Shown here one piece after another: positions 3,340-61,208 of a stretch of 64,000 bases of DNA. Position numbers and translations under genes: made by a program. Each line of letters begins with the position of its first letter. The stretch's first letter is position 1. The notes under the pieces are model-generated. The model saw only the letters and a program-made list of their open reading frames with translations, had not been told where the DNA came from and ran no database searches. Source of the DNA: Eledone cirrhosa (Eukaryota); assembly GCA_964016885.1 (NCBI GenBank), contig OZ024748.1:47554001-47618000 (forward strand). Direction: 5' to 3'.

Positions 3340-3637
3340 ACCAAAAGTTTATATGGTTCGTTGATTATTCAACGAATACAATTTAACAATAGATTAGAAG
3401 CACTCGACAGGATTTCATCTGGAGTATTTAATATTTTTCAAAATATTAATAAATGGAAAATATTATCATAACCAAAATATAAAAATGTTGAGGGTTGGTG
3501 AAATAAATTACTACCACTACAGGAATTGAATAATCAAAACCTTAGCGGTATGTCGCATATCCAATCTCTCAAATATTTTATCTGATGAAGACGTACTGAA
3601 ATACCATTGTACCTTTGAAATCTAAACTATAATAAAA
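3340..3637. mobile_element. Diverged relative of fold-back family E (tail on - strand, hammerhead on + strand)
   Basis: GAAGCACTCGACA...CTGGAGTA tail motif at about 3397-3426, shared with 19085 and 60753. TATTTTAT-CTGATGA-AGACGTAC...GTACCTTT-GAAA...ATAAAA at 3574-3637. Confidence 0.6.
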
Positions 3638-11834: not shown

Positions 11835-13301
<1,467 letters not shown>

Positions 13302-13417
13302 TTAATAAGAGGAATTTCAACTTTTTCTGATTTACTCGTTTTATTTACAATCCTTTAACATTTATAATGGTATTATAATGAAATAGTATGATAGAATATT
13401 AAATGTTAAGTGTTAAT

Positions 13418-13456
13418 TGAACAAGTACTTTCATGCTTTTGCAATCTTCAGGTTCA
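13418..13456 (-). ncRNA. Minimal type-I hammerhead ribozyme motif (family A, short arm)
   Basis: Reverse complement of 13532-13570, core intact. Confidence 0.7.
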
Positions 13457-13531
13457 TAATATGTGGTGACAGTCAAGTTTGCAATTTTCAACTGAGTTGA
13501 AAATTGCAAACTTGACTGTCACCACATATTA

Positions 13532-13570
13532 TGAACCTGAAGATTGCAAAAGCATGAAAGTACTTGTTCA
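13532..13570 (+). ncRNA. Minimal type-I hammerhead ribozyme motif (family A, long arm)
   Basis: TGAAC-CTGAAGA-T-TGC-AAAA-GCA-T-GAAA-GTAC-TT-GTTCA. Stem I TGAAC/GTTCA, palindromic stem III AGTACT. Confidence 0.7.
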
Positions 13571-13736
13571 ATTAACACTTAACATTTAATATTCCATCAT
13601 ACTATTTCATTATAATACCATTATAAATTTTAAATGATTGTAAATAAAACGAGTATATAAGACAAAATTGGAATTCCTATTATTAATATAATCTTCTATA
13701 GACAATCATACACACCCGTGTATATTTATCTATCTA

Positions 13737-13808
<72 letters not shown>

Positions 13809-13868: not shown

Positions 13869-14180
13869 TGTAGGAGGTGAGTTTTATTGTAGTACAATAA
13901 AGCAATGCAGATATCGGATAAGAAGCACTCTACAGTTTGTAGGACTGGAGTATACATAATACATAAGATCTATAAATTGATAATATATAAGATATATAAA
14001 TTGATAAAGAATTGAATATTATCTGTATACTTTGTGAAATGTCTTATGGAATTTATGCAAGCAGATAGAAAACAAATCTGTTCGTCTATTTATTATAGAA
14101 TCTAGATTAGAGATAATGGTATTCCATAAGACATTTAAACAAAGTATACAGCTAATATTCAATTCTTTATCAATTTAGAA
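13869..14180 (-). mobile_element. Fold-back element with family D tail
   Basis: 13869-13965 is the reverse complement of the tail at 53800-53892. Inverted arms at about 13997-14053 / 14121-14177. Confidence 0.65.
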
Positions 14181-14584
14181 TCTTTTCTCAAAGGCACATA
14201 TACATACACCTCTTTTAAAATATACCCATCTTCCTACCTTATTTCAAAGGGTATTATACACTCTATAATACTTGTTTACTCATTACCCTTACTCTATTAT
14301 CACCTTGTAAAATCCTTCGTAACATATACATTTGTTTATTCATCCTTAATTCATTATTTTTTTCTCCCCATCATCTAACTCATTCTTAATACATATTAAC
14401 TCTTTCTTCGCACATATTATCAATTCCTTCAATATACAAACCTTAACTTCACATTATTTTTCTCAAATCCTTCAATACACAAACCTTAATAATATTTTTT
14501 TCTCTTCGTTAATTTCCATAATACTTGTAAACATACAATATATATGCATATATATATATATATATGCATATATATATATATATA

Positions 14585-18986: not shown

Positions 18987-19264
<278 letters not shown>

Positions 19265-19565: not shown

Positions 19566-19953
<388 letters not shown>

Positions 19954-21437: not shown

Positions 21438-21793
21438 ACACACTATATATATATATATATATATACTATATATATACACACTATATATATATATATACTA
21501 TAGGAACCAGTAAGACCCCGACAGCTGAGCTCAAGCCGTTTCGACGGCTAATTCTGGACTAAATGAAAATTTATCCTGGTATTTAAAAATGTATATATAT
21601 ATACTATATATATATATACACTATATATATATATAACACACACTTACTATATACATATATATATATATACACTATATATATATATAACACACACTTACTA
21701 TATACATATATATATATATACACACACTATATATATATATATATACTATATATATAAATATACACTATATATATATATGTATATATACACACA

Positions 21794-22887: not shown

Positions 22888-23423
22888 ATATAGAATTCGG
22901 TTTAAGTGCATTTCGTATTATCATTACTAAACGTCTAATATGAGATATTGAACAAGCGCTGCCTTAAAAAATATTAAACTAGATCTGAAAAATGCGCAAC
23001 CTCAAAAAAGCCACAGATTGTTTCTAATAAACCTTCAAAAGTGTGGAACTAGAGTTGTTGCACGAAAATATTGTAATCATTATCTATCGTACACTCTGTG
23101 GCATCCTTTTATAAAAAAGACACTCATAACGAACTCAAGACGACACGATAATTATTTAAGTGAATTTATAATATAGAATTCGGTTTAAGTGCATTTCGTA
23201 TTATCATTACTAAACATCTAATATGAGATATTGAACATTAGCTTAAATCATTATCGTGTCGTCTTGAATTCGTTATGAGTCTCTTTTTTATAAAAGGATG
23301 CCTCAAAGTGTACGATAGATAATGATTACAATATTTTTGAGCAAAAATTCTAGTCCCACACTTTTGAAGGTTTATTATAACATTCTGTGGCTCTTTTGAG
23401 CTTGCCTATTTTTCAGGTCTAGT
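22888..23423. repeat. Inverted repeat (arms 22977-23160 / 23241-23423) whose loop duplicates upstream 22888-22954
   Basis: Direct comparison of the arms and the loop. The right arm runs into (TA)n. Confidence 0.85.
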
Positions 23424-23538
23424 ATATATACATGTATATATATATATAAATACACACAATATATATATATACACAATATATATATATATATATATATACA
23501 CAATATATGCATGTATATATATATGTATATGTATATAT

Positions 23539-23950: not shown

Positions 23951-24106
23951 GCATATATATACATATATATATATATGCATATATATACATATATATATAT
24001 ATATACATATACATATGTATATATACATATACATATGTATATATATATACATGCATATATATATATATACATATATATACATACATATATATATACATAT
24101 ACATAT

Positions 24107-24678
24107 GGTGGCTGCCAACTCGTTTTCGAGTACGGCCACTAATTTATATCCATGTAGGAGAACTACCGATGCGCTGAATCTGTGTGGCTTTTTAGTCCAG
24201 CCAGAGACTTGAAAACTCTGGTACAAACACTACACTTGTGAAAATTATTGACACATAGTTCTGGGCCCATGGTACTATGTGAGGACAAGTGCAGAGAGAT
24301 CTCCAGATATAAAGCAATGCCTGTGCTGTGAAGCTTTTATAGTAAGCAAAGGTACTGCACAAAGCCAGTCCAAATCTCTTAACCAAGATGATATTTACCA
24401 AAAAGAAGAACAAGTCAACATCATTGGATACCATCAGGGTTGCAGGTGTTATATCACAGTTTTCCTTCTCCTAGAATTCTGCCTTGACAAAGACTAAGGG
24501 GTCATCTCTCCCGGCGACTTTGGACTGCAATTGACTCTTAAGAGCTCCTTTGCCCTTTGACAGGTTTTGTTTTTAGTCCTGCAGGATGTCCAAAGTAACC
24601 CTCCTCACCAAGAAACCATGGTGGGGTTGCCAGTTTAGTCGCCAACGACCCGACCATGGAACATGGTTGTACTGGGAT
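24107..24678 (-). mobile_element. About 600-bp non-autonomous RTE-derived element, copy 1
   Basis: RTE-like 5'UTR motif AGAAGGAAAACT(C/G)TGA joined to a LINE 3' end encoding C-x2-C...GLKSH zinc finger. Microsatellite tail. Confidence 0.75.
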
Positions 24679-24690
24679 ATATATACATAT

Positions 24691-25299
24691 GGTGGCTGCC
24701 AACTCTTTTTCGAGTATGGCCACTACTTTATATCCATGTAGGAGAACCCCTATCGATGCACTGAACGAGTGTGACTTTTTAGTCCAGCCAGCGACTTGAA
24801 AACTCTGGTACAAACACTACACTTGTGACAATTATTGACACATAGTGCTGGGCACATGGTACCATGTGACGACAAGTGCAGAGAGATCTCCAGATATAAA
24901 GCAATGCCTGTGCGGTGAAGCTTTTATATTTAGCAAAGGCACTGCACAAAGCCAGTCCCACTCTCTTAACCAAGATGATATTTACCAAAAAGAAGAACAA
25001 GTCAACATCATTGGATACCATCAGAGTTGCAGGTGTTATATCAGAGTTTTCCTTCTCCTAGAATTCTGCCTTGACAAAGGCTAAGGGGTCATCTCTCCCG
25101 GTGATTTCGGATGGCCATTGACTCTTAAGAGCTCCTTTGCCCTTTGACAGGTTTTGTTTATTGTCCTGCAGGATGTCAAAAGTAACCCTCCTCACCAAGA
25201 AACCTTGGTGGGGTTGCCAGTTTAGTCGCCAACAACCTGACCATGAGACAGGTTGTACTGGGATACATGTTACCAGTAGCACCAACTGGTGACCTGACA
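24691..25299 (-). mobile_element. About 600-bp non-autonomous RTE-derived element, copy 2 (head-to-tail with copy 1)
   Basis: Colinear with 24107-24678 and 44029-44637. Confidence 0.75.
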
Positions 25300-25336
25300 T
25301 AAATATATATACATACATAAATATATATACATACAG

Positions 25337-25410
<74 letters not shown>

Positions 25411-25481: not shown

Positions 25482-25484
<3 letters not shown>

Positions 25485-25677
25485 CGAAGGAAATGTGGTA
25501 AGGAACCAGGTGGACCGTAACGCACCAAAGTACTCAATACTTAGGCTAGTAGAGTGGGTAATAGGAACGAGTAGGACCCCGACGGCTGAGCTCAAGCCAT
25601 TTCGACGGCTAATTCTGGACTCCAGAATTAGCCTTCGAAACGGCTTGAGCTCAGCCGTCAGGGTCCTACTCGTTTCT
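25482..25677 (-). mobile_element. Fold-back family B copy
   Basis: Reverse complement of the 19631 copy. Apex TTCTGGA-C-TCCAGAA, (TA)n flanks. Confidence 0.9.
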
Positions 25678-26290: not shown

Positions 26291-26293
<3 letters not shown>

Positions 26294-26503
26294 AACCAGT
26301 AAGACCCCGACGGCTGAGCTCAAGCCGTTTCGACGGCTAATTCTGGACTAAAAAAAAAAAAAAAAGTCCAGAATTAACCGTCGAAACGGCTTGAGCTCAG
26401 CCGTCGGGGTCTTAATGGTTCCTATTACCCACTCTACTACCCCAAGTATTGAGTACTTTAGTGCGTTATGGTCCACCTGGTTCCTTACCACATTTCCTTC
26501 GTT
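26291..26503 (+). mobile_element. Fold-back family B copy with poly(A) at the apex
   Basis: TTCTGGACT-(A)n-GTCCAGAA apex, (TA)n flanks. Confidence 0.9.
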
Positions 26504-26681: not shown

Positions 26682-26686
<5 letters not shown>

Positions 26687-27316
26687 TTGCGAGGTTTTTT
26701 ATATGAAATCGTGTGTCGAAACAAATATTGTTATACTTGGGGAGGGTCATATTTGTGTAATATTGCCAGAATTAATAACAGAACACACTCACTGTTTGGT
26801 TGGTTTTCCCTTCTCGCTGTCTTTTAAATCGGTAATCTAACTTACTCGGTCCTCAATGTTGCCATTGACTGACCGACGGTCGAAAATAATACAGATACAA
26901 TATAGACACAAACACATATATATAGTTTATCATAAATCTTTCGTTGCACATCTGCAACATCGTCAGTGGTGTTATATTTTCCTTCTTTTGTGTTGTATGT
27001 CTACGCCATTTTTTAGACAGACTGAATAAAAAATGGCGTAGACATACAACACAAAAGGAGGAAAATATAACACCACTGACGATGTTGCAGATGTGCAACG
27101 GAAGATTTATGATAAACTATATATATGTGTTTGTGTCTATATTGTATCTGTATTATTTTTGACCGTCGGTCAGTTAATGGCAACATTGAGGACCGAGTAA
27201 GTTAGATTACCGATATAAAAACAGCGAGAAGCGAAAACCAACCAAACAGTGAGTGTGTTCTGTTATTAATTCTGGCAATATTACACAAATATGACCCTCC
27301 CCAAGTATAACAATAT
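26682..27316 (-). mobile_element. Fold-back family C (about 290-bp arms, apex near 27021, tail 26682-26724)
   Basis: Palindrome 26725-27316 in (TA)n. Hammerhead CTGACGA-T-GTTGCA-GATG-TGCAAC-GAAA on - at 26929-26970. The + arm has GGAA in place of GAAA. Confidence 0.9.
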
Positions 27317-29271: not shown

Positions 29272-31333
29272 CTAGCAGAAGTACCCGGCGTTTCTCGGGT
29301 ATTAAATAGCAGTTATGTATACCATTTATGTCAATACTTCAGTGCTGCTTCGAAAACTATACTTTTACAAAATCATCGGCTTTTTCCAAAAGAGGGTTCC
29401 TGCCCTAGGGGTCCCCTACTCAATATGTGCTAATTCTGAGTGTTCAGATTCATCTGTAGAACAAACGTAGCCCATGTGTCAAGTTTTGTGAAAATCGGTT
29501 TCGTTCTCCAGAAGTTATGACGTTTTGTCGTATTGCACTGCAATGCTTCAGTCGACTCTAATAAAGCGGTTATCTGCCCGGAGGCCCTATAATGAATAAC
29601 TGGAAAAATGAAAGTGCCCATGACATAAGTAACCACTGACATAGGTTACACACTGTTTGTGTGTGTATGTATATGTGTGTGCGTATATATATGTATGTGT
29701 ATGTCCGTATGTACTAGCCTAAATTTTCACTATTTACTTTTACTATTTTATTAACCTCTGTCGCTTTCGTTTACAATTATATTTAAACTCCGGGGCTGGA
29801 AATCATTCGGTTATTTTAAATAGAATATTAGTCTAACGACTCCATTTATACCGTAAACTTGCTCTTGTCTTTGCATGAAATTGTTCTGCTCGGTCCACAT
29901 AACGACGTATTATCCTCGCTTGTTTCCGTTCATTGCCAGGGAACGTCTTCACGAACCAAAATATCGTCGTCCTGTTTTCCTTCGGTTGCAACGTTTCTCG
30001 AAATATTTACTTTTGCGTTCACAGATTGAATTTTTAGTTTCAGAAAATCCCGTTAATGTTGAAAGCAGCGATTCTTTGCTTAAACTTTAATCTGTTCTCA
30101 TAACAAATATATATATATATATATATTTGAAATTCAGATGTGCACGGTTAAATGGTAGTAGGCGTGGTCGGACTGACATGAAAATGTACACACCTATGTA
30201 AAAAGTGCCAAGGAAGCAAACAGACGAGGTTTCAAATCTCTAACTTGAAAAATGTGGTCCCTGGGGCCCCAAAACTATCGCGTTCGGTGAGTTATTTCCC
30301 CCTGTTCTAATGCTTTTGTCTTATTTACAATTTCATACAAATTTTTAAACTCATCAACGTTCTTTCGCTGTTAACATACAGTACCAATAATTTGAAAAAT
30401 ATCATTGAAAGTTTATTATAAAGAAGCAGTTTCAGGAAAAAGTGTAAACTATCATACAAACCTTCATAATATGCATTTTTAAACTTGCATATCATCGACA
30501 TTGCTATTTCGCTGTTAATAAACTATCATCCTTCTACATTTAACGATCATACAGTACCGTTTTATGAAATCGATTCTGCAGTACGGTCACTGTTTTCCAT
30601 CAAAAGAAATAAAACCCTTAATTTGCGAAGAAGGGACGCGTGTTTTTATTTTAATTTTAATACATGTTAACCACCACTAACAGTAAGTAGTATTTTTCAA
30701 ATTGCATATCACCGACATTGCTATTTCGCTGTTAATAAACAACGCTTTTCACGTCGCTCCACTTCTCAATGTACGCCGTCCAGTCCCAAGTGCATATTTC
30801 TATTTTTTTTCCTGAAACTGCTTCTTTATAATAAATTTTCAATAATATTTTTCAAATTATTAACTTAATAAAACGTGGCCCCGGGTGCAACCGGGCTCAG
30901 CTGCTAGTAAATATATATAACACACACAGTCACAGTACGTCTTCTGTGAAAGAGAGAAAGAGACGTTAGGTTGAGGAAAGGGGATAGTTGAACAGTATGT
31001 AAAGAATAGATAAATAAATAAAAGTTAAAGTTCCTCACTTTCTTTCTTTCTTTCTCAACCCCTCTCTCCCTTTTTTCTCATACCCTCTCTCTCTCTCGGT
31101 CTCTCTCTCATACCCCCTCTCTCTCTCTCTCTCTCTTCCTCTACAGAATGGAGAAAATAAAGAACGCGCAGATCTCTCACCCCGCCCCTCTCTCTCTTTG
31201 TCTTTATATATGTGTGTTTGTGTGTGTGTGAACCAGCGTTCGTCACCATTCTCTCTCTCTCTCTATCTGAATATCTTGTACCTCTCTCTGTATAACGACC
31301 TATCTCACTCTCTCTCTCTACATCTCCCTTTAG

Positions 31334-34020: not shown

Positions 34021-34174
34021 ATCCATTTTTTTTTTCATCTTGGGTAACAATATAATATAGTGACAACAGTTAATGACATAACTATAATACAGCAGTGTAT
34101 ATAGACAGCTAATGTAATAGGATACAGTTGTGCGCGTACACAAAACGTAAGGTACTATATTGATGTAATACATT

Positions 34175-35224
34175 GTGTTGTAAAATATAATGTAGTAACA
34201 AATATTGATGACTTACCAAAGGTACAATAATGTGTATCGACTTGTAATGTACCTACTTATGTATTAGTGTGTTGTAAAATATAATGTAGTGACTAATATC
34301 GGTGAAATACTAAGGGTACTGTAATGTGTGAGGACTTGTAATGTGCCTACTGAAGTAACAGTGTGTTGTAAAATATAATATAGTGACTAATATTGATGAC
34401 ATAGCAAGGGTACAGTAATGTTTGTAGACTTGTAATGTACCTACTGAAGTATTAGTGTGTTGTAAAATATAATATAGTGACTAATATTGATGACATAGCA
34501 AGGGTACAATAATGTTTGTAGACTTGTAATGTACCTACTGAAGTAACAGTGTGTTGTAAAATATAATATAGTGACTAATATTGATGAAATAGCAAGGGTA
34601 CAGTAATGTTTGTAGACTTGTAATGTACCTACTGAAGTATTAGTGAGTTGTAAAATATAATATAGTGACTAATATTGATGACATAGCAAGGGTACAGTAA
34701 TGTTTGTAGACTTGTAATGTACCTACTGAAGTAACAGTGTGTTGTAAAATATAATATAGTGACTAATATTGATGACATAGCAAGGGTACAGTAATGTTTG
34801 TAGACTTGTAATGTACCTACTGAAGTATTAGTGTGTTGTAAAATATAATATAGTGACTAATATTGATGACATAGCAAGGGTACAGTAATGTTTGTAGACT
34901 TGTAATGTACCTACAGAAGTAACAGTGTGTTGTAAAATATAATATAGTGACTAATATTGATGACATAGCAAGGGTACAGTAATGTTTGTAGACTTGTAAT
35001 GTACCTACTGAAGTAACAGTGTGTTGTAAAATAAAATATAGTGACTAATATTGATGACATAGCAAGGGTACAGTAATGTTTGTAGACTTGTAATGTACCT
35101 ACTGAAGTAACAGTGTGTTGTAAAATATAATATAGTGACTAATATTGATGACATAGCAAGGGTACAGTAATGTTTGTAGACTTGTAATGTACCTACTGAA
35201 GTAACAGTGTGTTGTAAAATATAA
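34175..35224. repeat. 94-bp satellite, about 11 copies
   Basis: GTGTGTTGTAAAATATAAT at 34361, 34455, 34549 and onward. Confidence 0.95.
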
Positions 35225-35402
35225 TTGTTTCTACTTTTGGCACAAGGCCAGCAATTATCCCAGTGTATTACTGGTACTTTATTTTATCGACTCCGTAAGG
35301 ATGAAAGGCAAAGTTAACCTCGGCGGGATTTGAACTCACACCGTAAAGGGACGTAACTGTGCTGCAAAGCATGGCGTCCGACCCTCTACCGATACTGCCA
35401 AA
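35222..35402 (-). mobile_element. tRNA-derived SINE
   Basis: Reverse complement of the 20524 SINE, B-box GGATTTGAACTC. Confidence 0.85.
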
Positions 35403-36332: not shown

Positions 36333-36846
36333 TAAACTACTGTTACACAATACCGTGGCTATGCAATTGTAAATACCTTGTAGACTTACGAATCCATTGA
36401 GCTGTAGTATTACGTAATGGTGCTTTCTTGCAGGAATAAAATAAAATGATACACGCTCAAATTAATTCACATAAAATCTCTTATATACTTCAGTTGACGA
36501 TTTCACAAACAACGGAGTATATGTATGTGTATGTACGTATGTATGTATGTCTGAATGTATGTATGTATGTATGTATGTTCGTATGTATGTATGTATGTAT
36601 GTATGTATGTATGTATGTATGTATGTATGTACGTATGTATGTATGTCTGAATGTATGTATGCACTCTTGAATCTATGCACGTACGTATGTATGCAAAGGG
36701 CAAACAGAAATGAAGCAAACGACACAGTACAATGAAGTGTATGTATATATATGTGAGTATGTATGTATATATATGTGTGTGTGTGGGGGGGGGTGTACAT
36801 ACGTATTTATGTTGTGGGTATATATATGCATGTATGTAAAAAATGT

Positions 36847-37253
36847 ACAAAGCCAGTCCCACTCTCTTAACCAAGATGATATTTACCAAAAAGAAGAACA
36901 AGTCAACATCATTGGATACCATGAGGGTTGCAGGTGTTATATCAGAGTTTTCCTTCTCCTAGAATTCTGCCTTGACAATGGCTAAGGGGTCATCTCTCCC
37001 GGTGATTTTGCTCACTATAAAAGCTTCACCGTACAGGCATTGCTTTATATCTGTAGATCCTTCTGCACTTGCGTCACATGGTACCATGGGCCCAGCACTA
37101 TGTGTCAGTAATTGTCACAAGTGTAGTGTTTGTACCAGAGTTTTCAAGTCGCTGGCTGGACTAAAAAGTCACACTCGTTCAGCGCATCGGTAGGGGTTCT
37201 CCTACATGGATATAAAGTAGTGGCCGTACTCGAAAACGAGTTGGCAGCCACCA
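36847..37253 (+). mobile_element. RTE-derived element, 5'-inverted copy
   Basis: 37007-37253 is the 3' half and encodes [22 protein letters not shown]. 36847-37010 is the adjacent 5' segment inverted. Confidence 0.85.
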
Positions 37254-37435
37254 TGTACGAATGTATGTAACTATATATGTTTGTACGTATGTATCTATGT
37301 ATGTAAGTACGCACAATAGACCAATACACTCACCCGTACTAACCCCTAATATATGGAGTCCTACAACAATAAATTAACTGACCCTCTTTTTCAGATATGG
37401 TTCTTTTTTTACTTTATATACACACATACACACAC

Positions 37436-39616: not shown

Positions 39617-39692
39617 ATATATGTACATATATATATGTATATATATATATATGTGTGTGTATATATGTACATATATATATATGTATATATAT

Positions 39693-40011
<319 letters not shown>

Positions 40012-40150: not shown

Positions 40151-40664
40151 GTAAGTATGTATGTATACGTACATACATATATGTATACAGACGTACAGTA
40201 GCATGCATATATATATATATATATATATATACATACAGGTACACATACATATATGCACGTATCAGTTTTGCGGACGCTTGTTATAACGCCGCTTTGTTCG
40301 TTTGTAAACAAACTGAACAGCCTGAATTTATGCCGTACGGTGTTAAGGCAACCACGTCACCTTTTTGTTCAACACTGACACAGGAACGATGTACTAGTTT
40401 CAAGCTTGTTAGCTATCATCAGCACCGTATACCCTTCTGCCAGATAGTTGAACGTTCGAAAGTATATACTTTCCTTATGAAAATTAACGGCTGAGCAGCC
40501 TAATTTGCATATCGAGTGAGTTAAGTCGGTCAGGCATACCGAAAACGATAAGTTGAAATAAAATGAAAACGAAATTTCATTTCTCACTCTTAGTACGGCA
40601 CTTACTTAAATGTAAGTATGTATGTATACGTACATACATATATGTATACAGACGTACAGTAGCA

Positions 40665-40756
<92 letters not shown>

Positions 40757-41418
40757 CAGGTACACATACATATATGGACGTATCAGTTTAGCGGACGCTT
40801 ATTATAACGCCGCTTTGTTCGTTTGTAAACAAAAATTTCGTTTTCATTTTATTTCAACTTATCGTTTTCGGTATGCCTAACAACGAAGGCTGACTTCCCA
40901 CTGGAACACCTGAAGCCTGCAATACATTCCTAGAGTGCTTGGAAAAATTGATTTCCATTTCTTTCGCTAGGCGATCTCACTCGGAATGGCTAACACGTGG
41001 TTAGGATGGGCTGTCCAGAGTCTACAGTCCCCGCGTGCTGCTGGACTGCTAAACAAGGACATAATCTTTACTTAATGGAGAACTGTCTGCCATGAAGGAA
41101 TAAAGAACTTTGAAACATCTTGTATGATCCATGTTCGTGATCTAAGACCTAACATCAAGATTTGATCAAGCAGTCAATCTCGGCTCAAAATCCTGTCATC
41201 TGCACTAAATGTAGCTTTATGTGTAACTCAGCAGCTGGACTAAAGTGTAAAGTGATATTTAAGGCAGACCATAAACAATTCAAGTGAGGAGGCTGTTGAT
41301 CCCTCGTATGTCGCTGTACGACAGGAAAGACCCTAATATATATTAGGCATATTTACATGTCTATACTCAAAACTGGGTAAATTTATATGCACATTCACAT
41401 AGTTTCAGATATCTCAAT

Positions 41419-42857: not shown

Positions 42858-42862
<5 letters not shown>

Positions 42863-43283
42863 AATATACACGGGTGTGTATGATTGTGTATAGAAGATTA
42901 TATTAAGAAGAGGAATTCCAACTTTGTCTGATTTACTCGTTTTATTTACAATCCTTTAAAATATATAATGGTATTATAATGAAATAGTATGATAGAATAT
43001 TAAATTCTAAGTGTTAATTGAACAAGTACTTTCATGCTTTCGCAATCTTCAGGTTCATAATATGCGGTGACAGTCGAGTTTGCAATTTTCAACAGTTGAA
43101 AATTGCAAACTCGACTGTCACCACATATTATGAACCTGAATATTGCGAAAGCATGAAAGTACTTGTTCAATTAACACTTAGAATTTAATATTCTATCATA
43201 CTATTTCATTATAATACCATTATATATTTTAAAGGATTGTAAATAAAACGAGTAAATCAGACAAAGTTGGAATTCCTCTTATT

Positions 43284-43287
<4 letters not shown>
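42858..43287 (-). mobile_element. Fold-back family A, copy 2 (apex 43094)
   Basis: Palindrome 42901-43287 plus tail 42858-42900. Hammerhead intact on - (43019-43057). The + arm core is mutated to CTGAATA (43131-43169). Confidence 0.9.
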
Positions 43288-44028: not shown

Positions 44029-44030
<2 letters not shown>

Positions 44031-44637
44031 TGGCTGCCAACTCGTTTTCGAGTACGGCCACTACTTTATATCCATGTAAGAGAACCCCTACCGATGCGCT
44101 GAACTAGTGTGACTTTTTAGTCCAACCAGCGACTTGAAAACTCTGGTACAGACACTACACTTTTGACCATTATTGACACATAGTGCTGGGCCCATGGTAC
44201 CATGTGACGACAAGTGCAGAGAGATCTCCACATATAAAGCAATGCCTGTGCCGTGAAGTTTTTATAGTGAGCAAAGGCACTGCACAAAGCCAGTCCCACT
44301 CTCTTAACCAAGATGATATTTACCAAAAAGAAGAACAAGTCAACATCATTGGATACCATCAGGGTTGCAGGTGTTATATCAGAGTTTTCCTTCTGCTAGA
44401 ATTCTGCCTTGACAAAGACTAAGGGGTCATCTCCCCCGGTGATTTTTGATGGCTATTGACTCTTAAGAGCCCCTTTGCCTTTTGACAGGTTTTGTTTTTA
44501 GTCCTGCAGGATGTCCAAAGCCACCCTCCTTACCAAGAAACTTTGGTAGGGTTGCCAGTTTAGTCGCCAACGACCCGACCATGAGACAGATTGTACTGGA
44601 ATACATGTTACCAGTAGCACCAACTGGTGACCTGACA
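44029..44637 (-). mobile_element. About 600-bp non-autonomous RTE-derived element, full copy
   Basis: Same ends as 24691-25299, with microsatellite on both sides. Confidence 0.75.
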
Positions 44638-44686
44638 TATATATATACATACATACATACATACATACATACATACACACACACAT

Positions 44687-44744
<58 letters not shown>

Positions 44745-46930: not shown

Positions 46931-47197
46931 TATAGATAGGTAAATATACACGGGTGTGCATGATTGTGTATATATATATCTGTATGTGTATGTATGTATA
47001 TATTTATGCGTATATGTGTTGGGGTGGTGTATAACGTTTACGACCAAATTAAAACTATATAACATTTATTTACATAAATGTTATATAGTATTGCTTTAGT
47101 TATAAACGTTTTCCTATATTTAATGTTATTTAGTAGCCAGAGCTTGAATTTTTCCTGAAATTTTTGTCATGGATCATACCAGCTCTCTCTCTCTCTT

Positions 47198-53039: not shown

Positions 53040-53043
<4 letters not shown>

Positions 53044-53232
53044 AAGGAAATGTGGTAAGGAACCAGGTGGACCATAACGCACCAAAGTACTCAATATTTA
53101 GGGTAGTAGAGTGGGTATTAGGAACGAGTAGGACCCCGACGGTTGAGCTCAAGCCGTTTCGACGGCTAATTCTGGAGTCCAGAATTAGCCGTCGAAACGG
53201 CTTGACCTTAGCCGTCGGGATCCTACTCGTTC

Positions 53233-53236
<4 letters not shown>
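53040..53236 (-). mobile_element. Fold-back family B copy
   Basis: Same structure as the 25482 copy. Confidence 0.9.
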
Positions 53237-53275
<39 letters not shown>

Positions 53276-53277
<2 letters not shown>

Positions 53278-53410
53278 AAAAAGTATGACCCCGACGGCAG
53301 AGCTCAAGCCGTTTCGAAAAATACTTTTTCCTATTTCCCACTCTACTACCTTAAGTATTGAGTACTCTGGTGCGTTATGGTCCATCTGGTTCCTTACCAC
53401 AATTCCTTTG

Positions 53411-53413
<3 letters not shown>
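53276..53413 (+). mobile_element. Fold-back family B copy with deleted apex
   Basis: Arms AGGAAAAAGTAT / ATACTTTTTCCT plus family B tail. Confidence 0.85.
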
Positions 53414-53472
<59 letters not shown>

Positions 53473-53504
53473 AGATCAAAAGATGGTTAAAGGAGTTCCA
53501 TGTA

Positions 53505-53571
53505 TTTTATTATGCGCATTTCAAAAACAAACATCATCATGCAATAATATTTGTGTTTTCATCAGATAAAA
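53505..53571 (-). ncRNA. Minimal type-I hammerhead ribozyme (family D, short arm)
   Basis: Reverse complement of 53699-53765. Confidence 0.8.
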
Positions 53572-53698
53572 CAGGAGAACATGATATGAAGGCTAAAAAA
53601 CACTTGTGGATAGTGCAGTTTTAAATCAACAATTTATATGTTGATTTAAAACTGCACTATCCACAAGTGTTTTTTAGCCTTCATATCATGTTCTCCTG

Positions 53699-53765
53699 TT
53701 TTATCTGATGAAAACACAAATATTATTGCATGATGATGTTTGTTTTTGAAATGCGCATAATAAAA
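53699..53765 (+). ncRNA. Minimal type-I hammerhead ribozyme (family D, long arm)
   Basis: TTTTAT-CTGATGA-[AAACACAAATATTAT..ATGATGTTTGTTTTT]-GAAA-TGCGCA-TA-ATAAAA. Canonical core, stem I TTTTAT/ATAAAA, palindromic stem III ATGCGCAT. Confidence 0.8.
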
Positions 53766-53888
53766 TACATGGAACTCCTTTAACCATCTTTTGATCTTAT
53801 ATTATGCATACTCCAGTCCTACAAACTGTAGAGTGCTTCTTATCCGATATCTGCATTGCTTTATTGTACTACAATAAAACTAACCTCC

Positions 53889-53935
<47 letters not shown>

Positions 53936-54226
53936 ATTGTTATACTTGGGGAGGGTCATATTTGTGTAATAATATTGCCAGAATTAATAACAGTTTGGTT
54001 GGTTTTCGCTTCTGTGTCTTTTATATCGGTTAATTTAATTTATTCGGTCCTCAATGTTACCATTGACTGACTGACGGTCAAAAATACAGATACAGTATAG
54101 ACACAAACACATATATATAGTCTAACAAAGTTCTTTCGATGCGCATCTGCAACATCGTCAGTGGTGCTATTATGTTTCCTCCCGTTGTATTGTATGCCTA
54201 CGCCATCTTTACTTTAATTCATCGCC

Positions 54227-54228
<2 letters not shown>
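53936..54228 (-). mobile_element. Family C single arm (no tail), diverged
   Basis: Colinear with 26725-27010. CTGACGA-T-GTTGCA-GATG-CGCATC-GAAA on -. Confidence 0.85.
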
Positions 54229-54290
<62 letters not shown>

Positions 54291-54401
54291 GAAATATTGA
54301 ACAGGGGCAGAACAGAGAGGCAGTACAATAAATGTTTATTAAATTCACGCTCGGGAGAGTGGGGGGGGGGGGCTAGGTGGGGGGGGGGGGGGTAGGTGGG
54401 G

Positions 54402-54437
54402 GACGACGTTTCGGGCATAAGCCCTTCTTCAGGTGAG
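54402..54437 (-). ncRNA. Hammerhead motif at PLE 3' end
   Basis: CTGAAGA-A-GGGC-TTAT-GCCC-GAAA-CGTCG-TC. Stem I does not pair in this copy. Confidence 0.65.
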
Positions 54438-55786
54438 AAGTGTGTGGGAACAGAGTTCAAAAGGTGTGTAGGGGAGTGGTAGAGAGACATATAGCGAAAG
54501 GAAACGGTGCGAATGAAAAATTAACAAATAAAGATAAAAAATATAATAAATAAAAATAAAGCATGATCAAAATACAAGGAATGAGAAAATTTAAAAATAA
54601 AGGTATGATCAAAATAAACTGAAATTAAAAGGGGGGTAAACAGGTGGTGGAAGGGTGTGGGGTGAGTAGGGGTGGTGGCGGGTGGAGTGGGGAGAGGGAG
54701 ACGGGGTGTCCGAGCGGGGAGGGCTGAAGGTGGTGTGTGTGGTTAGATGTGCGTGTGTGTGTGTATGTGTGTATGTGAAAGTGAGGGTTGGGGGAAGAAC
54801 GGGGTTGCATGTTCAGGAAGGTGTGTGTGGGGGGTGTTTTTGTGGGTCGGAGTGTCTGTGCGTGTGTGGATAGGGGGGTGGGGGGAGAGGAATCAGGAGG
54901 CTGAGGGTGTAAATATGTGGTGGGAAGCACGTGTGTGTGTGGTTTAAGCGTGTTGTGGGTGTGGGTGGCTGTGGATAAAAAAAATTTTGGGGGCTGTGTG
55001 TGTGGGTGAGTTATATAGGTGATGGTGTAAGAGGATGGTTGAAAAGTTGGTAAGTTCCACGGATGTTTGGAGATTTGGTTAGAAGTCAATTCGCGTGTGG
55101 GTAATCCAAGAAGCGGTGGTCGGAACAGGAGAGATGTGGGGTGCGCGCGCAACAGGAAGTGGTCAGCAGTGGGAGTGCTGTGGTCAGTTGGTGCTGAGAG
55201 GTGGTTGGGAGGGCATAGCAGCAGTCGGCGGAATGGTAGGGAGGCGAGGATGGGTAGGTGTGAGAGTTGGAGTGAGGAGGGTGTGTGTGTGTGTGTGTGT
55301 ATTAGTAGGGGTGTTAGTGGGATGAGTGAGTGTGGAGCGGGGAGAGAAGGGTGTGTGTGGTTCTATGGAGGGAGTGTGGTGTACTGGTGTGTGTGTAGTT
55401 TGGTGAAGAGGTGTTAGTGGGTGTTAGTATACGGGAGGTGGGGAGGGGTGGAATGCAGGTGTGAGTGGGGGTTAGTGGTGGTAGGGTGTGTAGAGTTGGT
55501 GGTGTACGAGGGTGTGTGGGTACGTGTGCGTGGGGTGGGGGGTGTTAGTGATGTTAGTTGCGTGTGGCGTGGGTGGTGTAAGTGGGTGCGTGTGTGCGTG
55601 TGATAAGGAGGGGGAGGAGGAGAAGAGGGGAGGGAAGGGATGTTAGTATGTTAGTTGGGGAAGGGTGGTCAGATGAAGGGTGGAGTGGAGGTGTTAGTAT
55701 TGTTAGTGTGAGGTGGGCGGTGAAAAGGAGGGGTGTGTTAGTGGTGTTAGTGGGGGATAAGTGTGGGGGGAGGGGGCGGTCGAACG

Positions 55787-56775
55787 CTAAAGGAATAAGG
55801 GTGGGGAGTTCAGGCCGGGGGGAGTGTGGGTCTGTAAGATGAAGATAGTGCGTTGTTCGACCGTAAGGCGATGGGCGGGTGTTCCGTGGCACTGGAGTAG
55901 GCCACAGACTGTGAGATGGCGTGCGGAGTGTCCAGGGCCACCAAAGTGGCGGGCGATGGGGGAACTGCCCCCGAGACGAATATCCCGGAGGTGCTCCGTG
56001 ACTCGGTCCGCCAGGCGACGTCCCGTCTGTCCGACATAAGTCGCGCTACACTCCGTGCAACGAAGTCCGTAGACTAGGTTGGAGGAGGTGCAGCGGAAGG
56101 CATGCCGGACCGAGAGAGAGTGGCCGTTGGGACCCTGGAAGGTGGTGGTGTTGGTGATGTGGGGACAGGTGTTGCAGCGGGGCCTAGAACAGGGGAAGGA
56201 ACCGGGGGGGGACCGGAGCGTGGGTTAGGGGTAGGGAGCTGTGGACGAGGAGGGTGCGGAGATTGCGTGCGCGTTTGAAGGAGGGGGGAGATGTGGGAGG
56301 TGGAGGGATCGGACTGGAGGCGTCGGAAGAGGCGGCGGATGGTGCGGTGGAGGGGTAAGGTGGGGGGTGGTAGGTGATGGGGAAGGGGAGACGGTGGGTG
56401 GGTGTGCGGTGGCGTGGGGTGAGGGTGGTGGAGCGGGGGATAGCACGGGCGCGGGTGAGAGCGGTGTAGACGAGAGAGGGGGGGTAACCTCTGCGGATGA
56501 AATGGCTGACTAGGGAAAGGGCCTGGGACTCGAAGTCAGCATCACGGCTACAGAGGCGGCGGATCCTGAGAAGTTGGGAGTAGGGAATGGAAAGTTTAGT
56601 GTGGGTGGGGTGGGAAGAGGTGAAGTCGAGGTAAGAGTGGGAGTCGGTGGGTTTGAAGAAGGCGGAGGTGACGAGGGAGTGGTGGGAGGGGTCGAAGGCG
56701 ACGGAGATGTCTAAGAAGTGGACGTGGGTGGTGGAGATAGAGGTGGTGAAGTGGAGGGAGGGGTGGAAGGAGCAG

Positions 56776-56778
<3 letters not shown>
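55787..56778 (-). pseudogene. PLE reverse transcriptase C-terminus/thumb plus GIY-YIG endonuclease (missed by the ORF track)
   Basis: Manual translation: FHPSLHFT..FLDISV..FKPTDSHSYLDFTSSHP..IPYSQLLRIRRLCS..RGYP..ITYHP..FKRARNLRTLLV..PCSRPRCNTCPHI..CTSSNLVYGLRCTECSATYVGQTGRRLADRVTEHLRDI..ARHF..PPGLN, TAG at 55787. About 3 frameshifts, in or near C-runs. Confidence 0.93.
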
Positions 56779-56813
<35 letters not shown>

Positions 56814-58006
56814 GCATTCGTACCTTTGTGTCTGTATATGTGTTTATGCGTATACTTTTGTGTCTGTGTGAGTGTTATGTATCTGACTATATTTGCGGAG
56901 AAATATGTATACGTATTTGTACCTCTGTGTCTGTATGTTTATGTTTGTGCGTATGTTCTTATGTCCGTATGAGTGTGTATGTTTTCTGTGTGTAACTAAA
57001 GACATGTATGTGGATAACTGTTCCATTATAGTAAGGCCTTCGCGTGAGTGAGCCACTAAAATGTCGTCGTGGAGACATGATCGAAGTGTTAAAACTTTAT
57101 TCGCTCTTTTATCGCCAAAATGCAGGTCAGTTTCACTTGTCCACTATCTTGGACGACGTCATACAAATAAAAACCAGGATGCGATAGCTTTCCCTCATGA
57201 AGACTGAGCCTGCCAAACTCAGCCTTTATGATGGCAAGCACCCAAATTGGACATCTCTTTACGCGTTTGAGGTTGGGAATGGCTGTGTAAATCTCGAAAC
57301 TGAGACGACACGTTTTCTGCATTCAACCTTGTCGCTTCGACCATAAACCCAAACAGTAGCACCTGTAACAGAGAGGAGGGGGAAATATCCAGATATCAAG
57401 ATTTGACTGAGCCCTTCGGGAATTCCTGTGTCCTCGGCCTCTGAACTGCCATTTTCCTCCTCAATATTCAGAGAAATACATCCCGTCTGAGAAAGTTGAG
57501 AGATATGCTTCCTATGAACGCATTTCAATTCAAAATATTAAGTGAGTTGTTACTGTCTTACGTACGAGTTACACACTCTGGGCATCTAATAGATAACGAG
57601 AATAAGCAGATTGCCGTTCATAGTCTGACCAAGGGAAATAAATAATTTTCTATATAGATAATAAAAAAAACCATCCGAACGTGGAATAGCGGAACTCTCA
57701 TCGCATCCATCTCTCTCGCCCTCCCCATCTTGTGTTGGGATGGCTGATAGAGCTACTGTCAGAAGCAGTGCTCCATGATGGCAATGTTTGCGCCATCTTT
57801 ACTGAAGGACATAGTTGAGATATACCACCGGGACAGGGGTATAGAATTTGAAACTGATGCTCCCTTCTCTTTATTTTCATAATTTCTCCTATTCTAATTA
57901 TTCCAGAATTGGTGTTTGTCTATTTCTTACTTAAAGTCAATCGAATTTCATATTTCACTTTATAACGATTTCAATATAATAATTGTATTTATTTGCTTAT
58001 GTACTG

Positions 58007-59678: not shown

Positions 59679-60352
59679 GATATCTATATGTATTCCAGAA
59701 ATATTATCATTTACAACATAAGTTTATATGTTAACATATACCTCTCCTTGATAACAATTCAATTAAGCCTAACAAGTTGAATATTTTCAAAATAGTTCGG
59801 AGACGAATATAACTTCCATTCCATTACAAATGAGAATACTTTTCTAACTTCCAAAACTGTAAAGTAAGTTATCTGCTTTGCACACTTATACATGCATGTA
59901 TACATATATATATATATATATACATGCATATATACTGAGAGATAGAGAGGGTGAATAAGATAGAGAGGGTGAGTAAGATAAAGAGGGTGAGTAAGGAAGA
60001 GAGAGTGAGTAAGGAAGAGTGAGTGAGTAAGTAATGTACGTGGGTGATATATATATATATATATATATATATACTATAGAGTAAAGCATGTCCAGAGAAT
60101 TATTTGATAATATATATACATCATCTCTACTCCCAATCAGCATAATTAACCACACAAAAAATCAATTAGACCAGGCTATAAGAATAAAAGACATCTATGA
60201 ATAAACAGAAATTAAATACGCTATTGTGGCGTCTTCGCGTGCAACCGCTATGGAATATTTACCCAAATATAAATATATATTAGAAAGTGAGGTTTTTTTA
60301 GAAAATGAAAATGACCGAGGTGTCCTACACGAGTGAAAGTATAAAGACAAAA

Positions 60353-60627
60353 AGATGAAATCAAAAATGCAACTGGAGTCTTATTTTTAAAAAAAATATA
60401 TATATTTATTTGGTTCCTTTACCGGTTTCGCAGTTCTTCTGCTTTTCAAAAGTAGAGTTGAGGTGGAGGGTCTGTGGTTTTTCTCACATGTGAGAAAAAC
60501 CACAGACCCTCCATCTCAACTCTACGTTTGAAAAGCAGAAGAACTGCGAAACCAGTAAAGGAACCAAATAAATATATATATATATATTTTTAAATAAGAC
60601 TCTCCAGTTGCATTTTCGATTTCATCT
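60353..60627. mobile_element. Fold-back family G (about 135-bp arms, apex CATG 60487-60490)
   Basis: Palindrome carrying a variant hammerhead CTT-TTGAAAA-GCAG-AAGAA-CTGC-GAAA-CCGG-TA-AAG on - (about 60417-60453), with a mutated copy on +. Confidence 0.8.
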
Positions 60628-60632
60628 ATTTT

Positions 60633-60688
<56 letters not shown>

Positions 60689-60814
60689 ATATAAGCAAAG
60701 GGATATTTAATTTGTTGGTAATTCAACAAATATATATATTTATAACAGATTCGAAGCACTCGACAAGTTTTCTGGAGTATAATATCATTGATATTAATAT
60801 ATAGAAACTATATT

Positions 60815-60875
60815 TATTCTATTATATATATTTCAAGGGTACCAAAACTTTGGTACGCTCTCATCAGATAAAATA
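60815..60875 (-). ncRNA. Minimal type-I hammerhead ribozyme (family E, long arm)
   Basis: Reverse complement of 60994-61054 with one stem II change. Confidence 0.8.
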
Positions 60876-60993
60876 CAAAGATTCTTTTATAAATATTGAC
60901 ATATCCAGTTCAAGTTTTACCTGGATAAAACTTGAAACTTGAGCCGTTAAGGTCTCATTCCTGGATATGTCAATATTTATAAAACAACCTTTG

Positions 60994-61054
60994 TATTTTA
61001 TCTGATGAGGGCGTACCAAAGTTTTGGTACCCTTGAAATATATATAATAGAATA
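60994..61054 (+). ncRNA. Minimal type-I hammerhead ribozyme (family E, short arm)
   Basis: TATTTTAT-CTGATGA-GGGCGTACCAAA-GT-TTTGGTACCCTT-GAAA-TATATA-TA-ATAGAATA. 8-bp stem I, palindromic stem III. Confidence 0.8.
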
Positions 61055-61095
61055 AAAATGGTTTTATAAATATAGTTTCCATGTATTAATATCAT

Positions 61096-61208
<113 letters not shown>

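Follow-up and report, generated by a model that had tools for sequence, protein, structure and literature searches.

The closest described systems are the Neptune Penelope-like elements (PLEs), in which, according to the sections of PMC8557442 used here, an RT is followed by a GIY-YIG endonuclease (EN), with a DKG motif and a CX2-5CxxC linker with a long spacer, and which show direct partial-tandem pseudo-LTRs (pLTRs), heavy 5' truncation, a (TA)n bias and a hammerhead core in the pLTR. The same sections use the linker to define Neptune together with Nematis, propose that it directs the (TA)n bias, and describe an inverted 5' copy with a tail as frequent in PLEs, albeit not obligatory. The published insertion layout consists of head-to-head arms, a palindromic junction and a one-sided tail of 30-40 bp (PMC8557442, Fig. 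2 and related text; PMC3846280, relevant sections), and PMC3846280 favours self-priming for the inverted junctions, at least in the sections concerned. For the Poseidon element Poseidon_Ac, the excerpted in vitro results of PMC11167929 describe an AT-rich target that is nicked, extension of both strands, and two RT starts which define the tail, with a start lacking homology to the cut DNA.

The window analysed here, 64,000 nucleotides of Eledone cirrhosa contig OZ024748.1, contains on its minus strand (54289-56777) the final 2.5 kb of a ~4.7-kb Neptune-type PLE unit. The copy lies between a (TA)n tract of 58 nt at its 3' junction (54231-54288) and one of 35 nt at its 5' junction (56778-56812), in agreement with the pure (TA)n predicted at both ends, and it is plainly 5'-truncated because other copies run upstream through YIDD, while its RT C-terminus and thumb (56225-56777, minus) start downstream of that motif. 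In stop-to-stop frames the RT C-terminus and thumb were read in the minus frame 56184-56843 (FKPTD, HPTHTK, ITYHP), and a separate minus frame of 145 aa (55787-56224) holds the CX4CxxC linker CSRPRCNTC (56165-56191, a motif as defined in the cited part of PMC8557442) and the GIY-YIG endonuclease (55787-56164), with NLVYGLRC..YVGQT, R, EH and, at its end, GLN followed by the stop codon, without internal stop. All three parts named in the original prediction, the PLE RT C-terminus, the linker and the GIY-YIG domain, were therefore found in minus-strand frames. Pfam gave a GIY-YIG match below cutoff (E 0.006) and no match for the RT piece, and a PDB sequence search returned 0 matches. The remaining 1.5 kb (54289-55786, minus) form a C/A-rich 3' region which ends in the pLTR, with the fixed family 3' end TTTCAT directly before (TA)n.

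Judged by its motifs, the window element is a copy from a new family of the known Neptune clade. The family combines RT and C-terminal GIY-YIG in one ORF with pLTRs or partial tandems and 5' truncation, the features of an EN+ PLE, and has the motifs DKG, YIDD and CX4CxxC; by eye, its RT motifs are close to the Neptune1_Ap rows and its long linker spacer resembles that of Neptune1_Nv. The protein of a natural single-frame copy (L143) has 468 database relatives at E<=1e-40 with RVT_1 and GIY-YIG annotations; the named ones come from molluscs, an urchin and a coral, and the best is 57% identical, which is why we consider the family new. Among the 120 relatives listed, the linker pattern is present in 118 and DKG in 104. 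Because our own RT tree was built without named references and left most branchings unresolved (support for 2 of 13 branches, with long branches meeting), the Neptune label rests on motifs and by-eye comparison. The Nematis clade was rejected since ~20 aa separate the linker CxxC from the next Cys, as in the Neptune rows, versus ~5-8 in the Nematis rows, a spacer criterion that is our own reading of the relevant part of PMC8557442 Fig. S2. Naiad was rejected as well, having an N-terminal endonuclease and DKA where this family has a C-terminal EN and DKG, and so was the Hydra clade, which is marked by DKT, CxCX5C and a lack of CCHH. Of the CCHH-related residues, the window copy has, by eye against Fig. 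S2, the CxxC inside GIY-YIG, the EH and the later H, the position of which is occupied by R in L143.

The family is present in high copy number, with 2,972 candidates for the ORF region in the 3.0-Gb genome, 40 of which were scored and are 92-97% identical (the window copy itself left out), and with 1,114 exact matches to the 31-nt pattern of its 3' end; it is a young family. Alone among the patterns counted, this 3' pattern is strand-skewed, with 465 forward and 649 reverse matches, for which arrays or duplicated contigs may be responsible. In all of the first 30 family copies by position, one of them an internal tandem junction, a (TA)4 was found within 60 nt downstream, compared with 134 of 736 far-flank spots (18%) and 27% of window spots, so that tabulation of the flanks upholds, for this family, the suggestion that PLEs of this type target (TA)n. 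Among 25 long loci, chosen by ORF, the 5' ends are variable, with a direct upstream partial tandem (pLTR) in nine, TA directly at the 5' junction in 14 (by eye), and an inverted piece at the 5' junction in none. The family thus resembles the Neptune PLEs of PMC8557442, as far as these are described in the sections used, in domain order, DKG, linker, partial-tandem pLTR, 5' truncation, (TA)n bias and hammerhead core, and differs in its one fixed 3' end, without tail, in the inverted 5' copy, which was not seen, in the length and C/A-richness of its 3' region and in its short hammerhead stem I; the inverted-copy-plus-tail layout of PMC8557442 and PMC3846280 (same sections) is likewise not found in it.

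We compared the spacing of the window copy with the modal spacing in 32 family copies. There is a loss of 1 nt near 56363 (29 vs 30 in 26 copies), a loss of 14 nt near 56288 (40 vs 54 in 25 copies), and an out-of-frame change in C-run length near 56211-56231; the frame is indeed broken, as predicted, although C-runs account for only part of this. Only two of the 32 copies are in frame over all eight intervals, and the breaks differ among copies, one C-run interval having nine different lengths. A programmed frameshift or an intron between RT and EN was considered and rejected, since the breaks are copy-specific and single-frame copies exist. Open frames of >800 aa hold five of 150 scored EN matches, none of which was traced whole from a start codon, and two natural copies (L143, 828 aa; L145, 822 aa) run from RT to EN in one frame with no visible local shifts and with RVT_1 and GIY-YIG Pfam matches that are both below cutoff. 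That assembly errors caused the breaks in the window copy, behind which a continuous RT-thumb-EN fragment would still be encoded, is unlikely. Homopolymer indels are frequent among the copies, as the C-run lengths and the scarcity of wholly in-frame copies attest, but homopolymer slippage does not account for the 14-nt loss, and even an unbroken window copy would have neither the catalytic core of the RT nor the 5' end. In public contigs and reads, depth is pooled over all family copies and no record spans a junction of the locus. Lacking catalytic core and 5' end, the window copy cannot mobilise anything, and it is an ordinary dead retrotransposon copy.

At 54408-54432 (minus) the copy has a CUGAAGA-stem II-GAAAC core, within a hammerhead-like feature (54402-54432, minus) for which we predict a stem II of 4 bp, which folds, and a stem I of ~2 bp by eye. 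Core and stem II are kept in 117 regex matches over all loci, overlapping loci being counted. Rfam gave no match at gathering for the window element, and no hammerhead even at E 10, so of the predicted 3' hammerhead the core is present, with its stem I reduced to ~2 bp, and we classify 54408-54432 as a predicted hammerhead core and not a demonstrated ribozyme. Minimal PLE hammerheads described in part of PMC4209133 include a variant with a 2-bp helix I, and have low activity. Just 3' of the core, the C-runs at 54365-54393 are expanded and duplicated, a feature absent from most copies. Elsewhere in the window, another TA-flanked element (40232-40667, 40753-41418) includes a hammerhead core (40422, minus), and position 3582 has an older one.

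The window element shares its TA-rich surroundings with fold-back structures. We traced six hairpin families from fold-backs between TA tracts, designated A-E and H53 (our own labels, given independently of those of the original prediction), the fold-backs at 13989-14184, 19114-19162, 22975-23426, 39689-39816 and 47033-47110 lying outside this tracing. The immediate neighbours are a collapsed family C insertion with the inverted arm joined to the tail tip and with a Nematis-like master (53934-54230, plus), a family H53 hairpin and tail which is the 3' end of a Hydra-type PLE (53468-53891, plus), and two family A copies, also 3' ends of a Hydra-type PLE (53041-53411). Other family A copies are at 19632-19817, 21498-21591, 25484-25676 and 26292-26502; the family B hairpins at 13296-13738 (plus) and 42860-43284 belong to the 3' end of a second Neptune-type PLE, and a family C hairpin at 26684-27312 (minus) is the 3' end of a Nematis-like PLE. 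On the other side of the window element are a family E hairpin (60270-60571, minus), with a third Neptune-type PLE as probable master (one copy), and a family D hairpin with hammerhead (60686-61097, minus), for which a single head-to-head copy provides the link to a Hydra-type endonuclease.

In longer copies, all six families run upstream into their own coding PLE, three of them Hydra-type, two Neptune-type and one Nematis-like, with the assignments of D and E each based on one copy; as the original prediction envisaged, coding PLEs ending in hairpin arms or tails do exist in this genome. The H53 long copies (1.3-4.2 kb) terminate distally in an inverted arm and encode Hydra-type RT and/or EN in four of the seven translated, including a 637-aa frame (L177), DKT (L179) and CxCX5C. 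Family A has 16,914 exact matches, counted by pattern search because the arm words are too common for DNA similarity search, and six copies in the window; its short copies far outnumber the long ones, and in L186 a head-to-head unit of 2.8 kb encodes a CxCX5C endonuclease (Hydra). Four long copies of this family (L169, L170, L151, L159) have a variant hammerhead-like core upstream, with YUGAGAAG / UUGAUAAG replacing CUGAnGA, and many family A hairpins are centred inside its stem II region. Family B (3,211 exact matches) has a 775-aa Neptune-type frame in L334, and family C (4,400 exact matches) a Nematis-like RT-EN in L336; these proteins are 29% and 21% identical to that of the window Neptune family, respectively, and a Hydra-type master is 22% identical to it over 188 aa, which sets the window family apart from the Hydra clade, the whole range covering two RTs and one RT-endonuclease fragment. 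Upstream in the family B master there is also a second, separate frame of 476 aa, which occurs in two head-to-head copies that translate identically (L334:3327-6427).

For family D, no master was found in the 30 best-hit loci, and an own-strand endonuclease is present in only one of six extended loci, L370, where the arm is joined to a broken Hydra-type EN inside one head-to-head insertion. Two further loci (L371, L372) are 99.6% identical over 4.3 kb and have the D arm just downstream of an APE-RT LINE, either as a duplication or as a LINE-linked D copy. In family E, a broken Neptune-type RT-EN lies upstream in one of four long loci (L378), and there is no master in two of the three extended loci; the link to a third Neptune-type PLE is probable, weakened by ~190 nt of it being single-copy and by a (TA)6 in the spacer. 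A terminal CxxC/CxH is present in the masters of families A, D and H53, which, with CxCX5C and (TA)n insertion, resemble the Hydra clade including Hydra-1_Obim in the relevant sections of PMC8557442. The hairpins have the published PLE layout of head-to-head arms, palindromic junction and one-sided tail, with tails of ~40 nt in B and C and of 75-90 nt in A, D, E and H53, versus the published 30-40 bp. Three further PLE families lie next to the sampled loci, at L337:5668-6621, L338:3931-5757 and L335:2960-3865, one without Cys linker (Poseidon-like) and two Hydra-like.

In all, the window element very probably belongs to a high-copy Neptune-type family that likely inserts by (TA)n nicking from one fixed start, and it probably shares the TA repeats with the hairpins as a co-tenant without mobilising them. 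The proposal that it generates or mobilises the hairpins fails for this family, since each hairpin family has its own master and since no inversion was seen in the Neptune family, neither among the long loci nor among copies with a visible 5' end, where inverted copies number 0/19 versus 18/27 in A, 17/29 in B and 11/25 in C (Fisher p 2e-6, 2e-5 and 9e-4). For this comparison 30 copies per family were taken by position, and those with the 5' end outside the locus (11, 3, 1 and 5, respectively) were dropped; the automatic inversion calls are imperfect, L204/L205, L169/L170 and L268/L269 each being one element met twice. An ambiguous 77-nt opposite-strand piece lies ~100 nt upstream of the 5' end in L066 (one of 30 best-hit loci), and a 90-nt opposite-strand piece beyond the 3' end in L045. 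There is no similarity between the window element and any hairpin segment in the window, just as had been noted, and the suggestion that relatives of the element are the partners is correct insofar as the partner is not this exact element, but finds no support as to close relatives, the masters belonging to other lineages, with 21-29% identity in those compared. The two marks of an autonomous partner, a 3' end common to the short elements and the same insertion layout, are not seen in the Neptune family.

It is accordingly very unlikely that short non-coding hairpin RNAs obtain their RT and endonuclease in trans from the Neptune family or its close relatives. The common (TA)n target, the youth of a family of which some natural copies encode RT-EN in a single frame, the excess of short over long family A copies and a trans event described for a rotifer PLE (in part of PMC3846280) would fit such a role; set against them are the absence of any sequence common to the Neptune family and the hairpins, a coding copy of its own for each of the six families, hairpin centres that differ between copies, so that hairpins are not copied as a fixed unit, and the fact that the Neptune family's own products are not inverted. 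The parts of PMC3846280 used here report that the two PLE types under study did not mobilise each other, with a single trans event between pLTRs on record, and as the protein that made an insertion cannot be read from the sequence, any PLE protein may in principle have acted in trans. Somewhat less doubtful, albeit still unlikely, is that most hairpins arise in cis and that some, D above all, are non-autonomous RNAs or retrozymes borrowing the cognate Hydra-type enzyme and not this Neptune. Many D copies begin at nearly one point, at a distance of ~280-300 nt from the end, a pattern to be expected of a short non-autonomous RNA, the own-strand endonuclease is as scarce in D as noted above, and PLE-derived retrozymes are described in bioRxiv 10.64898/2026.07.22.740005 (as far as its available part goes), whereas L370 joins the D arm and a Hydra-type endonuclease in a single insertion. 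This reading is compatible with our main conclusion on the window element.

For the window family, insertion may proceed as follows. The GIY-YIG domain with its Cys linker would nick (TA)n, the nicked end would pair with a short UAUA where pLTR and 5'-UTR meet in the RNA, and the RT would copy the element's RNA from a single fixed start and stop early, after which the cDNA would be rejoined to the TA tract; in the hairpin families, each family's RT would act in cis from two starts ~40-90 nt apart and give the hairpins as short head-to-head products. The outer ends of the hairpins are fixed and their centres vary from copy to copy, which argues that each hairpin is made at insertion, and the (TA)n target common to all families accounts for their accumulation in a single TA field. 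At seven junctions of tandem copies, TATA follows the end in the template, so the end overlaps the target by at least four letters. By eye, nine of the ten ends with known continuation have 3-5 letters in common with the (TA)n target and the tenth has two, the overlaps of B, D and E resting on few observations and the B arm end varying (2-5); at random positions in the same regions an overlap of at least three was found in 5-20% of cases, giving a rough binomial of 5e-6 at the highest random rate, with ends treated as independent. This suggests base-paired priming from the (TA)n end, although junction remodelling at a later stage could give the same overlap. The two RT starts defining the tail, the nicking of an AT-rich target and the extension of both strands resemble Poseidon_Ac in vitro, while the overlaps differ from the non-homologous start given in the same part of PMC11167929.

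Since family B is also Neptune-type, inversion is not a clade trait and goes with the second end. Two-start families invert in three clades and the single-start Neptune family does not, and we tentatively propose, at rather less than even confidence, that inversion may come from two-ended priming and not from random snap-back, with telomerase-like UAU/UAUA pairing of 3-5 nt in all families. No report of single-end non-inverting versus two-end inverting PLEs, or of TA microhomology at PLE starts, was found in a search that covered few subscription papers. A tail-less, non-inverting PLE beside tailed, inverting PLEs in one genome constitutes a natural experiment on hairpin formation, and the matched enzymes make testable the origin of PLE inverted structures, a question named as open in the cited part of PMC8557442. 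The window element also serves as a control, showing that a common (TA)n target does not imply mobilisation. Families A, B and C, with the match numbers given above, may be a candidate source of excess near-perfect dsRNA, which PMC5625713, in the part available, links to hyper-editing.

A repeat search across the window was dominated by (TA)n. Other repeats in the window include a ~600-bp unit at 24070-25338, 44029-44692 and ~36840-37280, in tandem and elsewhere in the window, a MITE-like element at 30386-30861 with 56-bp terminal inverted repeats and a 360-bp spacer, and a 94-bp unit in 11 tandem copies of 94% identity at 34170-35225.
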